From NCBI RefSeq assembly GCF_018688095.1, contig NZ_CP061311.1:2023352-2055351 (forward strand): 32,000 bases of DNA, in the 5' to 3' direction. The DNA comes from Polynucleobacter sp. AP-Titi-500A-B4 (GTDB taxonomy: Bacteria > Pseudomonadota > Gammaproteobacteria > Burkholderiales > Burkholderiaceae). How positions within the stretch are numbered: position 1 is the first letter of the stretch; every line of letters begins with the position of its first letter. Below are positions 16,415-21,887 of this stretch, piece by piece. The notes under the pieces are model-generated. The model saw only the letters and a program-made list of their open reading frames with translations, did not search any database and was not told the origin of the DNA. The translations under genes and the position numbers were made by a program.

Positions 16415-16437
16415 AAACGTCCTTTAAAAGGACGTTT
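16415..16437. terminator. extended 11-1-11 palindrome at the end of the Hxs operon / island junction
   Basis: AAACGTCCTTT A AAAGGACGTTT, overlapping the stop (16436-16438) of the last operon gene. A related GTCGATTAAATCGAC lies at 16379-16393. Confidence 0.5.
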
Positions 16438-16699
16438 ATCTATTTGCCGATCCAAAAAAGCTCATTACTCCTAAACCAAATCCAATGTAATAAAAGAGTC
16501 CAGTATTTGGCTGTCCAATAATAAAAACACCGTCTACAAAGAGCCAGCCAAAAAATGAGAAAACAATTATGTATCCATGCCATAAGCCTGAAAAGAAGCC
16601 ATATGGATCACCAATTTCTTCGGGTGCATAGTGGTGTGCACATCCAGACAGTACAAGGCTAATAACAACTATAAGCGGAAGGTATCTTAGACACCTCAT
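16436..16699 (-). CDS. small membrane lipoprotein (87 aa), last gene of the Hxs operon
   Basis: Lipobox LSGC followed by two hydrophobic helices. It abuts the stop of the peroxidase gene. Confidence 0.6.
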   Translation of the reverse strand: MRCLRYLPLIVVISLVLSGCAHHYAPEEIGDPYGFFSGLWHGYIIVFSFFGWLFVDGVFIIGQPNTGLFYYIGFGLGVMSFFGSANR

Positions 16700-17914
16700 T
16701 TAAAAAGATAGGGTTTTTAAAAAGCTAACTACTTGGTTAACTTCTTCCGAGCTTAGGTAATTAACTCTGGTAGTACTGTCGCTATAAGTCAGTCGTTTAG
16801 ATAGTTCAAATCTGTCAAATTGCTTCATCTTATCTACAGCAATAAGCGACAACGGATCATAGTGTGCCGTTACCGCCTCTTCCATAGTTCTAACAGAACC
16901 AGAGTGCCCATATGGACCAGTCTTCTCTACGTTATATAGGGGGGCTGTTCTAAATTTATATAAATCTTTTGTATTGAAAGTAACGTTATATCTTCCATGG
17001 TCAACACCAAACCCATTTCTTCCAAAACCTAATTGAGGAAAGGGGACTGAATAAAATTTAAAGTCAGAAAAATGAGGTCCTGAATGACAAGTAACACATG
17101 CGCCCTTGCCGTAGAAAATCCTAGCTCCTTTAAACTCTGCTGGAGTAAATGACTCCTTACCAGCCATAACATTCTCAAGTTTTGATGGCTTTAGCCTAAA
17201 TTCAGAGCGAATGAATGCCGCCAAGCTTCTTGCATAGTCTATGTACTCAAGCTTGCTCTCGTCTTTCCCTAATGCTTTTGCCAACTTCTTACTTGCTTCT
17301 GGCTCAGTCTTTACTAAGTTTTGGACAATGGCTTTATAGACTTCTTTAGATTTTTCTACAGATTCTGTTTTGTTTTTTTCAATGAACTCGTCTTCTTGCA
17401 ACATTTCGCGTATTTCTACTACCGGCAAATGATCGGCTGTTACTAACGAATCATTTGATGGGAGATTTGACCCAAACTGAGTAATCTTTTTGTTACCTGA
17501 AAAATCAACCCTGCCATCCCAAAAGAAAACATCAAATCCTTTGGCTCCTCGCCCCCAAAAAGCCAGGGCATTTCTTGGGAGTAACTTTGCACCACTTAGT
17601 AGTCTTTTTGGGCCATCGCCCTCACCACCAACAGCCGCCGCAATAGGAATACCATCCGTAGAACCAAATCTGTCCAAATGGCATGTTTGACATGAAATAT
17701 TGCCATTCAAACTCAATCGCTTACTTTCAAATATTACTTTACCAACATCAGCCAACTTCTCATCTGGATTTCTATATAAATCACCAGAAGGCACAAACCC
17801 CGCAGACTTAATCTGCTGTTTAATAATTCTCACTTCCGCATTTTCTGCTCTGGCAACATGGGCTGTTACCAGCAAGAGAGCTATCAGGGTGGTTGTCTTA
17901 ATATTTAATTTCAT
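16700..17914 (-). CDS. di-haem cytochrome c peroxidase family protein (CcpA/MauG-like)
   Basis: Two CxxCH motifs (CQTCH, CVTCH) and the family motif GPYGHSGSVRTMEEAV. Start set at MKLNIK (17914). Confidence 0.8.
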   Translation of the reverse strand: MKLNIKTTTLIALLLVTAHVARAENAEVRIIKQQIKSAGFVPSGDLYRNPDEKLADVGKVIFESKRLSLNGNISCQTCHLDRFGSTDGIPIAAAVGGEGDGPKRLLSGAKLLPRNALAFWGRGAKGFDVFFWDGRVDFSGNKKITQFGSNLPSNDSLVTADHLPVVEIREMLQEDEFIEKNKTESVEKSKEVYKAIVQNLVKTEPEASKKLAKALGKDESKLEYIDYARSLAAFIRSEFRLKPSKLENVMAGKESFTPAEFKGARIFYGKGACVTCHSGPHFSDFKFYSVPFPQLGFGRNGFGVDHGRYNVTFNTKDLYKFRTAPLYNVEKTGPYGHSGSVRTMEEAVTAHYDPLSLIAVDKMKQFDRFELSKRLTYSDSTTRVNYLSSEEVNQVVSFLKTLSF

Positions 17915-18281
17915 GAGTTTTAACAAAAGTTCTAACATCGTTTGCTTTTTCTTCTATTGCTTCCAATCCAATTTGAGCAAGGTCATTTTCAGTTAAGCCC
18001 CAGCTAATTAGCTTTTTTCTCATAGTATCGTAGTCATTACAAGTTAAAAGCCCAATCTCAGCGGCGTGTAGTTGCTTAATAGATTCATCTGATTTATCTA
18101 CATTCACCTTATTTTTGGCAATTAAGTGGTTCTGCATGACGTTATCGCATTGAAACACTAAAGTTTTGTAATCCTCTTTATAGATCTGGGTGCCAATAAA
18201 TGGCAAAGCAATGAACTTAGTTGCTAATCCAATACAGGAAATTGAAGCTATTACATTCAAGGTAATAAGTAATTTTTTCAT
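17898..18281 (-). CDS. small secreted/anchored protein (127 aa), unknown
   Basis: N-terminal hydrophobic signal/anchor, two Cys. It overlaps the next gene by 17 nt. Confidence 0.55.
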   Translation of the reverse strand: MKKLLITLNVIASISCIGLATKFIALPFIGTQIYKEDYKTLVFQCDNVMQNHLIAKNKVNVDKSDESIKQLHAAEIGLLTCNDYDTMRKKLISWGLTENDLAQIGLEAIEEKANDVRTFVKTHEIKY

Positions 18282-18284
18282 TAT

Positions 18285-19842: not shown

Positions 19843-21292
19843 TTGGTTGTGCCCAACTCATAAACAATCTTTTTACATACGGATCGGCTTCCATACGCTC
19901 GATTACATATTTGAATATTTTCATATTCCTATTGCAAAACTCAGATTCTGGTTTCCTGCCTATAAAGTCTTTGTACACACCATGATGAAATACTGGGTCA
20001 GCACCACAATATGATTCAAACGCACAGTCATTGCACATGGGCACACTATAAGCAAATGACTCCTCAATGGGATCTAGTAGCTTTGGATTTAAAAAAATAT
20101 CTTCATATGAATTAGTTAAGACATTTCCTAGCTCAAACGAAGTGTCACCCATTTCCGCAAGCATTCGACTCTCGTCAGATGCATAAACTAAGCCGTCGTA
20201 GTTGTAGACAACAGCACCAATGCCGATGCCTGATGGACTCATTAAATCAACATAACCAGGCTCTTGACTTGTAAACATCTTTGTCAAAATTGTTGAGGTG
20301 TAGTATTCGCGAAACTTAACGCCTCTTCTATTTAGGTTAATGATGTATTCCAACCCCTCTAAGTAAAAGTCATGCCACCTCTCAGCATCATAGGCGGCGT
20401 ATGTCTTGGTTTTGAGAGCAAACCCATAAGGCGAAAGAGGGCGGAGAAATATTCCCGTAAACGAATACTTCAAGTATTCATCAATAATCTCTTTAACATG
20501 CCCAAGGCTATTTTTGGTAGTTGTCATCAATGCAGAGACCGCATCTATTCCAAGATGCTCTCTAACTAATTGAATGCCCGCTACCGCCTTTTCATAGCTA
20601 TTGCCACCTGGACGTGGTCTGTTGGCATTATGAATTTCTTTAGGGCCATCCAATGATGTGGATATTATGATTTCATGTTCTTTGCAAAAACTGAGAATCT
20701 CTTCATTTATCAAGGCTAGGTTCGTTGCTATAACAAAGCTAAGATTCTTATTGCCTGCCCTACTTTTTGCCGCTACAACGATATACTTTATTAATGGAAA
20801 GTTAAGCAGGGGCTCTCCGCCTTGGAACTCAATTTTGATATTTTTAGATGGCGAGCGTAGAGCCAAATCAATTGACCTGTCTGCTACCTCTGTAGACATA
20901 TCAAATTTAACTTTATCGTCAGACTGCCTAGATACTTGGCAATACGGGCAACTATGCTCGCACCGAAGAGATACAACAAAGATGTGAAGGCCAGTAAATT
21001 CACTTAATACGCTGTACTTAGTTCTTAATTTAATTGATAAGAGATCTTTGGCAATTTGAGTCTTATCATCTGTTAAGAAATGTTTGGCTCTCAAATTTAC
21101 ATAATGAGCTGAACCACTATCTAACTTATGCCTTACTAGATTCTCTAATGCATCCCTTGGGATGATCAAATGCTCTCCAGCTAGATTAGTAACTGCATAA
21201 TTATTTCCTCTCAATGGCTCAAAGCGAAATGGCAATAGAGAGTATTCTTTTTTTTTATTCTTATAGAACTCTATTGGCTGAAACTTACTCAT
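19835..21292 (-). CDS. hxsB: His-Xaa-Ser system radical SAM/SPASM maturase HxsB
   Basis: CEHSCPYC radical SAM motif, FQGGEPLL, and a SPASM-like C-terminus CNDCAFESYCGADP. It overlaps hxsD and hxsC by 8 nt each. Confidence 0.85.
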   Translation of the reverse strand: MSKFQPIEFYKNKKKEYSLLPFRFEPLRGNNYAVTNLAGEHLIIPRDALENLVRHKLDSGSAHYVNLRAKHFLTDDKTQIAKDLLSIKLRTKYSVLSEFTGLHIFVVSLRCEHSCPYCQVSRQSDDKVKFDMSTEVADRSIDLALRSPSKNIKIEFQGGEPLLNFPLIKYIVVAAKSRAGNKNLSFVIATNLALINEEILSFCKEHEIIISTSLDGPKEIHNANRPRPGGNSYEKAVAGIQLVREHLGIDAVSALMTTTKNSLGHVKEIIDEYLKYSFTGIFLRPLSPYGFALKTKTYAAYDAERWHDFYLEGLEYIINLNRRGVKFREYYTSTILTKMFTSQEPGYVDLMSPSGIGIGAVVYNYDGLVYASDESRMLAEMGDTSFELGNVLTNSYEDIFLNPKLLDPIEESFAYSVPMCNDCAFESYCGADPVFHHGVYKDFIGRKPESEFCNRNMKIFKYVIERMEADPYVKRLFMSWAQPNA

Positions 21293-21590
21293 CCTTTATT
21301 AGCCCTGTCTTTGAAAAGGTATGAGCTAATATTAGATTCCTAACGCCTTCAGTTTCCTTCTTGATGGATTCCCTTAAATCTTGATCAAGAACTTCCTTCT
21401 TAAACTCATCTAAATAGATTTTTACTTGTGGTTCAGTTGCAGATTCTTTAAAAGTCAGACCGCACTTAATCTCATTACCTTCTTTAGCAATGTTTACCGC
21501 AAACCTATTAATACTTCTATAAGCGGCTTTTTTTATCGCATCAACTGAATATACGGTTGCATCAAAAGTTATTAACACTTCCATTGGCAA
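21285..21590 (-). CDS. hxsD: His-Xaa-Ser system protein HxsD
   Basis: 101 aa. VLDQDLRE resembles the LLNDYxLRE signature I recall for this family. RBS GAGGG. Confidence 0.7.
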   Translation of the reverse strand: MPMEVLITFDATVYSVDAIKKAAYRSINRFAVNIAKEGNEIKCGLTFKESATEPQVKIYLDEFKKEVLDQDLRESIKKETEGVRNLILAHTFSKTGLIKDE

Positions 21591-21599
21591 CCCTCATTA

Positions 21600-21887
21600 C
21601 TAACTTCCAGATCTATGCGATCCATGTGATCCATGTGATGCGTGTGACCCATGAGCGGCAAAAATTAGTCCGACATCGGATTTTTTTACCAACAGCTCAT
21701 GTTTTTCATCGCCCTTCAAGTACTGAGCTATATGTGTAGTTGTTCCTTCGCGCTCTGCATTTGAATTGGCTTGGGTCGAGCTACTCTTCTCATCAGACTC
21801 AATAGGTTTGATCTGGGTTGCTCCAGCATTATTTGCCATTAGGGCGGTGGCCGCCAAACCTACTGGTATTAAAAATTTCTTGGACAT
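21600..21887 (-). CDS. hxsA: His-Xaa-Ser repeat precursor protein HxsA
   Basis: Sec-type signal peptide MSKKFLIPVGLAATALMANNAGA. The extreme C-terminus is HGSHASHGSHGSHRS, five consecutive H-x-S triplets encoded at 21612-21653. Confidence 0.85.
   Translation of the reverse strand: MSKKFLIPVGLAATALMANNAGATQIKPIESDEKSSSTQANSNAEREGTTTHIAQYLKGDEKHELLVKKSDVGLIFAAHGSHASHGSHGSHRSGS

Follow-up and report, generated by a model that had tools for sequence, protein, structure and literature searches.

What does a di-haem protein contribute to a bacterial operon whose core genes encode two radical S-adenosylmethionine (SAM) maturases and a small repeat peptide? The question is raised by a locus of Polynucleobacter sp. 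AP-Titi-500A-B4, lying within a stretch of 32,000 nucleotides (contig NZ_CP061311.1, positions 2,023,352 to 2,055,351) that was analysed as a whole and is referred to below as the window. Here eight open reading frames (ORFs) on the minus strand, running from 21887 down to 16436, include the genes of a His-Xaa-Ser (HXS) system. A sequence-only reading of the window had taken them for an eight-gene pathway in which cytoplasmic radical SAM chemistry is followed by MauG-type haem-dependent cross-linking of the exported precursor. Our analysis favours a different assignment, to which we give a probability of about 0.6, namely that the locus is an HXS system of the HxsA2 class with a periplasmic di-haem module and a split effector, carried as island cargo at tRNA-Phe. 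The eight ORFs were verified at the coordinates given before, all sequence motifs described for them are present, and the operon is composed as follows.

21600..21887, minus strand: hxsA2, 95-aa precursor (NF038296)
21285..21590, minus strand: hxsD, small partner protein (TIGR03976)
19835..21292, minus strand: hxsB, radical SAM maturase (TIGR03978)
18697..19842, minus strand: hxsC, second radical SAM maturase (TIGR03977)
18285..18695, minus strand: peptidoglycan (PG)-domain gene, putative detached HxsA anchor (PF01471)
17898..18281, minus strand: 'His-Xaa-Ser system protein' of 127 aa (TIGR03982 / PF27798)
16700..17938, minus strand: di-haem protein of 412 aa (TIGR03981), likely start M9 at 17914
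16436..16699, minus strand: lipoprotein-like protein of 87 aa with two transmembrane (TM) segments, no family
16412..16436: palindromic hairpin AAACGTCCTTTTAAAGGACGTTT, directly 3' of the last stop codon, likely a terminator

The genes are tightly packed. On the longest ORFs, hxsA2 and hxsD are separated by 9 nt (15 nt from the ATG at 21584, the likely true start of hxsD, with GAGGG read from the sequence 6 nt upstream), the hxsD/hxsB and hxsB/hxsC junctions are overlaps of 8 nt each, gaps of 1 nt and 3 nt lie on either side of the PG-domain gene, and the di-haem and 87-aa genes abut with 0 nt between them. The earlier range of 0-9 nt for gaps and overlaps thus holds for every junction except that between the TIGR03982 and di-haem genes, where the overlap amounts to 41 nt with the longest ORF and to 17 nt with the M9 start (17914) used by homologues. 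A promoter scan upstream of hxsA2 gave no convincing sigma-70 site, and the matches were fewer than in shuffled sequence.

The window proteins were scanned with NCBIfam and Pfam profiles and scored against the curated cut-offs. Six of the eight ORFs lie above NCBIfam cut-offs, for HxsA2, HxsD, HxsB, HxsC, TIGR03982 and TIGR03981, and the earlier assignment is confirmed for HxsB, HxsC and HxsD. HxsB scores 607 with TIGR03978 (cut-off 370), matches the Pfam families Radical_SAM and Fer4_12 and carries the motif CEHSCPYC (CX3CX2C) at residue 111; the cysteines C420, C423, C429 and C453 near its C-terminus form an auxiliary cluster that can be classed as SPASM/twitch-like. HxsC reaches 402 with TIGR03977 (cut-off 267.9), with CNHYCLMC (CX3CX2C) likewise at residue 111 and with C352, C355 and C361 in addition, and HxsD reaches 61.9 with TIGR03976 (cut-off 50). 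The 127-aa protein (TIGR03982, 103.7 against 40) and the di-haem protein (TIGR03981, 'His-Xaa-Ser system-associated MauG-like protein', 357.7 against 340) belong to families named after the system. The PG-domain protein matches PG_binding_1 (PF01471, 30.5 against 23) and has no Hxs-specific database model, and the 87-aa protein gave no family match in the NCBIfam and Pfam scans. Two newer Pfam families, PF27806 (HxsD) and PF27798 (His-Xaa-Ser_sys), were found in the precomputed labels of a homologous locus.

The precursor had been called HxsA. Its five C-terminal H-x-S triplets are indeed there (residues 79-93, HGS HAS HGS HGS HRS, the protein ending in HRSGS), but it scores 81.1 bits with the HxsA2 model NF038296 (cut-off 48) and only 20 with the classic HxsA model TIGR03979 (cut-off 121.65), so that HxsA2 is the appropriate name. 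A Sec-type signal peptide, read by eye at about residues 1-23 (…NNAGA/TQ), is followed by a spacer. The protein contains no Trp and a single Tyr, and the mature form, with 8 K+R, 9 D+E and 7 His, is not basic. In the classical form of the system the repeats and the PG domain are in one protein and the genes are ordered D-B-C-A; here the order is A2-D-B-C and the PG domain is encoded separately. Together with the low TIGR03979 score, this argues for placing the locus in the HxsA2 class rather than in the classical one. We assign it, on its profile matches, to the twin radical SAM Hxs systems of the HxsA2 class and, within these, to a di-haem-carrying subtype that NCBIfam and Pfam have already named (TIGR03981, TIGR03982/PF27798 and NF038296). 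The window proteins exceed all three cut-offs and show no difference in kind from the subtype, and in Polynucleobacter sp. SHI8 the layout is identical to that of the window operon. Because its families already bear these names, the locus is not a new kind of system, and the coupling of a haem enzyme to the maturases, which the sequence-only reading had offered as its own inference, was contained in the names of TIGR03981 and TIGR03982. The database entries consist of names only, and a literature search found no mention of TIGR03981, TIGR03982 or HxsA2.

The sequence-only reading had also held that the system was without published chemistry or biological role. This is superseded by Li et al. 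(Nat Commun 2026, PMC13128918), who report that the system acts against phages, with a modification of +8 Da and localisation in the periplasm. Of 113 coliphages, 110 are countered by the E. coli hxsD-B-C-A operon, without abortive infection; the phage DNA is kept from entering, and mature HxsA acts in the periplasm. In E. coli HxsA a signal peptide is combined with five HxS repeats and a PG-binding domain, and the PG domain and each repeat are essential. For HxsA to be processed at its N-terminus HxsB, HxsC and HxsD are needed, HxsD binds HxsC, and the mass increase of 8 Da maps to SHRSS of the last repeat, its dependence on HxsB, HxsC and HxsD being not directly measurable. An electrostatic DNA-binding model was proposed for HxsA. 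Haem, MauG and HxsA2 are nowhere mentioned in that paper (PMC13128918).

With the HXS systems of E. coli MEM and of a Klebsiella plasmid, the HxsA of the latter serving as our classical reference sequence, the window has in common the twin radical SAM proteins HxsB and HxsC, HxsD, and an effector with a signal peptide and five HxS repeats, the last of which is H-R-S. In the enterobacterial systems the PG-binding domain is needed and the effector is periplasmic, points in which the system of the window is predicted to resemble them. The gene order differs (D-B-C-A against A2-D-B-C), the window adds two conserved genes (TIGR03982 and di-haem), and the single effector protein of the enterobacteria is replaced by a 95-aa repeat peptide and a membrane-anchored PG-domain protein.

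The latter protein, treated before as an additional gene of the operon, appears to be the wall-anchoring part of HxsA itself. It is composed of an N-terminal TM helix, the motif RNENSTPRSFVLPATPA (residues 47-63) and a PG_binding_1 domain, and its gene sits after hxsC, the position of hxsA in the classical D-B-C-A operon. In five di-haem-linked loci (L140, L143, L146, L154 and L155) the gene after hxsC encodes a protein of about 190 aa with a signal peptide, HxS repeats, a conserved RNxxSTPPxSVLPSSPA and a PG-binding domain, which among the NCBIfam models matches HxsA best, along its whole length and at 89-112 bits slightly under the cut-off. A profile of 20 anchor proteins aligned by hhalign with the C-terminal part of these fused HxsA-like proteins at 99.4% probability (E 1.8e-21), and BLASTP of the anchor against a fused protein gave E 9e-07. 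BLASTP of HxsA2 against a fused protein gave no alignment, probably owing to the low-complexity repeats; the relation between the two is drawn from the NCBIfam HxsA2 model, which matches the repeat region of the fused proteins. Of nine invariant columns in the anchor family, six fall within the motif, more than in the PG domain. The motif, RNExSTPR..LPAxPA in the anchor, was found in all di-haem-linked loci with the upstream gene on the contig (6 in the genome set and 63 in the metagenome set), as opposed to one spurious match among 74 loci without a di-haem gene, and Klebsiella HxsA lacks it and has a Ser-rich linker at its position. The motif is thus tied specifically to the TIGR03982/di-haem pair. 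Homology, gene position and motif co-occurrence taken together argue that HxsA is split into hxsA2 and a wall anchor, so that the PG-binding protein can be regarded as the detached C-terminal part of HxsA and the window as carrying HxsA in two genes.

The association of the accessory genes was examined in a di-haem-seeded survey of 668 database homologues and 80 metagenome loci. A TIGR03982 gene lies directly upstream of the di-haem gene in all 70 testable loci, and a PG-domain gene precedes this pair in 53 of 57. In three of the four exceptions a second TIGR03982/di-haem pair is interposed and in one a fused HxsA had been missed by phmmer, so that an anchor or fused HxsA is present in 57 of 57 when these explained cases are counted. 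hxsB and hxsC were found in 56 of 79 di-haem loci, all others having less than 1.7 kb of upstream sequence; hence the TIGR03981/TIGR03982 pair adjoins hxsB/C in every locus with enough flank (56/56). The genes are co-directional in 45 loci and otherwise oriented in 11. PG anchor, TIGR03982 and di-haem genes form an invariant accessory unit. The earlier expectation that the downstream genes would recur next to Hxs genes elsewhere therefore stands for these three and fails for the 87-aa gene. The closest relative is locus L081, with 88% nucleotide identity over the operon, and a 2-kb contig binned as Methylophilaceae is 97-98% identical.

A second survey was seeded on HxsC and covered one genome per species, with 80 loci (L001-L080) searched with all eight window proteins. 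In 67 of 79 HxsC loci a short precursor with C-terminal HxS repeats lies upstream of hxsD, and no HxS protein was found just downstream of hxsC in the HxsC-seeded loci. A2-D-B-C is the norm among the relatives of window HxsC, which come from Pseudomonas, Burkholderiales, Methylophilaceae, Legionella and others. The PG-domain, TIGR03982 and di-haem genes follow hxsC in only 6 of the 80 loci and are missing in 73 of the 79 HxsC-bearing ones; the six are scattered among relatives lacking the module, which therefore appears to have been gained and lost. Loci without it showed no conserved gene downstream of hxsC, and the neighbours of other Hxs loci vary (a TIR gene in L163). For the published survey the long HxsA was the seed, and 99.6% of systems were reported as D-B-C-A (PMC13128918). 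In the majority of the HxsC-seeded loci the upstream precursor is short and of the HxsA2 type, and a PG domain is lacking altogether. The HxsA2 class seems to be large and missing from the published census, and from the 67 of 79 relatives with a short upstream HxsA2 it follows that HXS diversity has been underestimated. Five loci of Planctomycetota/Isosphaeraceae (L072, L074, L076, L079 and L080) have instead an upstream HxS-rich ORF of 244-341 aa in which the repeats are not C-terminal, possibly a further precursor class, HxsA3 or HxsA4.

The TIGR03982 protein had been described as secreted. Its AlphaFold model (predicted local distance difference test score of 87) is all-helical, with an N-terminal helix continuing into a three-helix bundle, and we predict that the protein is not simply secreted but membrane-anchored. 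Among its invariant residues are C45, C81, H52, H123 and, at the C-terminus, Y127. A TIGR03982-like domain is fused N-terminally to di-haem paralogues in four loci (L024, L120, L124 and L127; hidden Markov model E ~1e-6 to 1e-7), and tandem pairs of TIGR03982-like and di-haem genes are found in L103 and L106. These fusions and tandem pairs indicate a physical partnership, most simply of a membrane tether or adaptor with its enzyme, and the TIGR03982 protein is a probable partner or tether of the di-haem enzyme. The fused genes lie at 13282-14919 (L024), 5623-7326 (L120), 2012-3685 (L124) and 3478-5178 (L127). Many Hxs loci carry a second, longer di-haem paralogue of about 470-570 aa, either fused to a TIGR03982-like domain or placed after a separate TIGR03982-like gene.

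The di-haem protein carries CQTCH at residue 83 and CVTCH at residue 281 and matches the CCP_MauG domain (PF03150, 59 against 25.6). It stays far under the equivalog cut-offs of MauG (TIGR03791, 65 against 444) and MbnH (TIGR04039, 93.5 against 363), and its best sequence matches among solved structures are the canonical bacterial cytochrome c peroxidases (bCcPs; Paracoccus 2c1u, Shewanella 3o5c), followed by MbnH (6e1c, E 3.8e-18) and then MauG. With MauG, MbnH and BthA it shares the CCP_MauG fold family, the two CXXCH haems and the conserved Trp in an FWDGR-like motif. W128 and W140 (FFWDGR) are invariant, and either may be the equivalent of the inter-haem Trp; in the alignment with Paracoccus CcP it is W128 that falls on the FWDGR Trp. 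As for those enzymes, which are periplasmic, the gene stands beside that of a presumed protein partner. No Trp-rich substrate, however, is evident.

Another difference concerns the distal ligand of the E-haem. MauG-type enzymes have a His-Tyr E-haem and bis-Fe(IV) chemistry, and canonical peroxidases a His-Met one (PMC11892367; His-Tyr also PMC6405878). In the window protein the position is occupied by His359, which is invariant in 20 diverse family members, residue 360 varying between Y and F. In alignments His359 falls on the Tyr of MbnH (…IDIY) and on the Met of Shewanella CcpA (…NTM), and relative to the Met ligand of the canonical bCcPs there is either a His at this position or a 4-residue insertion, HYDP, that contains it; unlike those peroxidases, the protein is dedicated to the Hxs operon. 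The alignment with wild-type MauG ends at residue 293 and crosses 294 only in the Y294H mutant (3orv). The E-haem is thus predicted to be His/His-ligated, with neither the His-Tyr pair of MauG nor the His-Met pair of canonical peroxidases. When the Tyr is replaced by His, both MauG and BthA lose their bis-Fe(IV) signature, the BthA mutant retaining peroxidase activity (PMC6405878). An invariant His at the Tyr-ligand position, with this mutant precedent, argues that classic MauG chemistry is not to be expected and makes long-range cross-linking of the MauG kind unlikely. An enzyme of the peroxidase or electron-transfer type is more likely than one of the MauG type with bis-Fe(IV) chemistry. As to the two-compartment pathway put forward earlier, its sequence of cytoplasmic radical SAM chemistry and periplasmic action fits the E. 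coli system, and its MauG-type cross-linking does not fit the invariant His.

The eighth gene, which the sequence-only reading had included in the operon, is a hitchhiker at the operon end and not a conserved Hxs component. It was found in 5 of 66 testable di-haem loci, all from one metagenomic lineage (L086-L090), and in Polynucleobacter sp. SHI8 (78% identity). L081 lacks it by a clean 264-nt indel, retaining the downstream recombinase gene as well as the hairpin, which there follows the di-haem gene. The protein has a lipobox, LSGC, and two TM segments. Distant homologues occur in prophage-like contexts or beside an Abi_C gene and none beside hxs genes, which suggests a family of mobile small membrane proteins without a Pfam model; a role resembling superinfection exclusion is only a guess. 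Three of these homologues lie at 8001-8279 (L164), 3997-4323 (L165) and 507-779 (L166), and the neighbours include genes for a DNA methylase, RdgC, a terminase small subunit, an integrase and Abi_C.

The operon lies in a segment of about 18 kb that is bounded by copies of the 3' end of tRNA-Phe and holds, besides the Hxs genes, a NERD-domain gene, two tyrosine-recombinase-like genes and an AAA ATPase.

23707..23726, minus strand: tRNA-Phe 3'-end copy, exact 20-mer, island boundary on the upstream side of the operon
22552-23169, minus strand: NERD-domain gene (PF08378, 111 bits), just upstream of the operon in the same island
15035..16309, minus strand: tyrosine-recombinase-like gene, 424 aa, weak NCBIfam XerA-type match (E 1.9e-07)
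11477-12043, plus strand: recombinase of 188 aa, clearly Xer/integron-integrase-like
5553..5599, minus strand: 47-nt copy of the tRNA-Phe 3' part (anticodon loop to CCA), island boundary on the downstream side

Between 5572 and 23707 no further tRNA-Phe copy was found. The 20-mer forms, in Polynucleobacter sp. SHI8, the 3' end of a genuine and intact tRNA-Phe, and two further copies bracket an island of the same order; the tRNA-Phe half is identical between the window and that genome. This identical half, two Rfam matches to Polynucleobacter-1 RNA in the window and the closest loci are clues to a freshwater betaproteobacterium resembling Polynucleobacter as the host. We regard the Hxs operon, from these boundaries, as cargo of an island of about 18 kb at tRNA-Phe, a situation that fits a defence role. 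The recombinase-like gene at 15035..16309 is syntenic downstream of the operon in L081, L083, L086, L087 and L162, and the gene order of the recombinase region is kept in SHI8 and L081. This region, from 15035-16309 to 11477-12043, is probably the mobility module of the island. The AAA ATPase and unannotated neighbours join the two recombinase genes (ORFs at 14050-14832 and 13311-14093, both on the plus strand). The NERD protein is weakly similar to the N-terminal regions of BREX PglW and MADS MAD6, and its gene is not conserved at the corresponding position of L081.

Further copies of the tRNA-Phe(GAA) 3' end, ten in all and every one on the minus strand, are spread over the window.

960-1045, 1595-1614, 2351-2370, 2823-2842 and 4172-4191, minus strand: tRNA-Phe 3' copies
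5553-5599, 23707-23726, 25581-25600, 26155-26174 and 27262-27308, minus strand: tRNA-Phe 3' copies, the first two being the island boundaries
10050-10184 and 30959-31088, plus strand: Rfam Polynucleobacter-1 RNA

Two of the copies keep 47 nt (anticodon loop to CCA) and the others about 25 nt, and no intact tRNA was found in the window. Most are followed by a similar terminator hairpin, giving a repeat of about 86 nt, the copies at 5553 and 23707 having different hairpins. Outside the 18-kb island their spacing is 0.5-1.9 kb and neighbouring copies enclose one or two genes, such as those of an MFS transporter and of a SorA-like Mo-oxidoreductase with a cytochrome c, so that the arrangement resembles a series of tiny islets in tandem, without integrases, at a tRNA-Phe hot spot. 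Two other identities of the 86-nt repeats were considered and rejected. ARAGORN and Rfam found no tmRNA (ssrA), the repeats being tRNA-Phe 3' fragments, and an integron attC site, suggested by a GTCTAAC-like core seen by eye, does not agree with a unit made of a tRNA end and a terminator hairpin in an unfit orientation. A block of 1.6 kb is duplicated at 8890-10508 and 29785-31417 (81-96% identity, 20.9 kb apart), each copy containing a Polynucleobacter-1 RNA (RF01718, 93 and 86 bits) and a DUF6641-like ORF, and a 300-nt match links 5515-5814 with 27224-27523. The duplication and the match suggest two islands in tandem that belong to one family and differ in their cargo. Short AT-centred palindrome families are dispersed across the intergenic regions of the window and could be terminators or repetitive extragenic palindrome (REP)-like elements. 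The TGTCCTTTTAAAGGACA palindrome has 11 intergenic copies, for example at 16412-16436 and 23481-23505, and a pair resembling GCGTCGATTTAATCGACGC (16373-16397 and 22005-22029) brackets the Hxs operon on both sides, its downstream copy being absent from L081.

These features can be combined into the following scheme. HxsB, HxsC and HxsD would modify the C-terminal HxS repeats of HxsA2 in the cytoplasm, as judged from the E. coli homologue, and the peptide would then be exported by its Sec-type signal peptide. Anchoring to the cell wall would be supplied in trans by the membrane-anchored protein encoded after hxsC, whose homology to part of HxsA suggests this function. The helical TIGR03982 membrane protein, consistently associated with the di-haem enzyme, may tether or partner it, and the two may carry out a redox step in the periplasm, linked either to the anchor's RNExSTPR..LPAxPA motif or to the effector once exported. 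With its predicted His/His E-haem, the enzyme would more probably act as a peroxidase or in electron transfer than in the manner of MauG, and the 87-aa gene would be that of an unrelated mobile membrane protein riding at the operon end. A comparable division of labour is known from the maturation of quinohaemoprotein amine dehydrogenase, in which the radical SAM/SPASM enzyme QhpD first modifies a small protein in the cytoplasm, export and periplasmic steps coming after. The substrate and the accessory genes differ from those of the window, and HxsB, although distantly similar to the corresponding model TIGR03906, scores 83 bits, far under the cut-off of 453.

Several points weigh against the assignment to an antiphage HXS with a dedicated His/His di-haem module. 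HxsC is only 36% identical to the enzyme of the Klebsiella plasmid, so the antiphage function is extrapolated here. Mature HxsA2 is not basic, unlike the effector of the enterobacterial systems and what the electrostatic DNA-binding model for E. coli HxsA would have it be. The subtype is known from sequence alone, and PADLOC 2023 includes neither a model for it nor any Hxs model, HxsB and HxsC giving only weak viperin matches. A Foldseek search of the TIGR03982 model against the PDB gave no match with E <1, leaving the protein without structural relatives there, and the His ligand was called from a sequence alignment, not from a structure.

How far the haem enzyme acts on the Hxs products themselves is where the explanations diverge. 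That all eight genes form a pathway resembling those of RiPPs, peptides made on the ribosome and modified after translation, with MauG-type cross-linking of the exported precursor and an envelope-associated product, agrees with the CCP_MauG superfamily and the MauG-like NCBIfam name of the di-haem protein, with its strict co-inheritance with hxsB/C, and with the export or membrane signals of precursor, anchor, TIGR03982 and di-haem proteins. We nevertheless consider it unlikely, given that the Tyr that defines MauG is here an invariant His, that His mutants of MauG and BthA lose bis-Fe(IV) (PMC6405878), that the MauG equivalog model gives so low a score, that HxsA2 offers one Tyr and no Trp, and that the eighth gene is not conserved. 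The di-haem and TIGR03982 proteins might, on the other hand, be a supporting redox module that removes peroxide or transfers electrons near the effector and leaves the Hxs proteins without covalent modification. The best sequence matches among solved structures being canonical peroxidases, the peroxidase activity of His-ligated BthA with an external donor (PMC6405878), and the 73 of 79 genome-set loci that do without the module are all in keeping with this. It nonetheless seems doubtful, since a generic peroxidase would not be expected to track one motif-bearing PG anchor so strictly or to be translationally coupled to it, and since the TIGR03982 fusions indicate a dedicated complex.

A function in metal handling rather than defence, by a His-rich exported peptide and a haem pair like MbnH/MbnP, as in copper homeostasis, is brought to mind by the HxS repeats and by MbnH (6e1c; TIGR04039) being among the closest solved relatives. 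The size and fold of the TIGR03982 protein are unlike those expected of MbnP, it has no match in the PDB, the operon includes no transporter, TonB receptor or metal regulator, and the locus is on an integrase-bearing island beside a NERD gene. As the core enzymes also exceed the Hxs equivalog cut-offs and the only Hxs system tested is antiphage (PMC13128918), we hold this explanation to be very improbable. Returning to the HxsA2-class system with its periplasmic di-haem module, a more specific version of it would have the PG anchor, the TIGR03982 protein and the His/His di-haem enzyme form an oxidative module of phage defence that modifies or cross-links the anchor motif or joins HxsA2 to the anchor; we put this forward tentatively, as possible but short of probable.

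In summary, the interpretation given by the sequence-only reading is partly supported, and the locus can be described as an HXS system in which the effector is divided and a haem enzyme added. Only the four-gene enterobacterial form of HXS has been studied so far. Because the subtype separates the repeat peptide from the wall anchor and adds the haem enzyme, it offers a natural dissection of the roles of the parts, and it raises the question of what a periplasmic di-haem enzyme does in a defence system. If HxsA2 were joined to the anchor, the fused effector of E. coli would be rebuilt post-translationally. The oxidative module, if real, would represent a haem-dependent step in antiphage immunity, and its enzyme, with His/His ligation and a chemistry of its own, a third ligand class of the bCcP/MauG superfamily.

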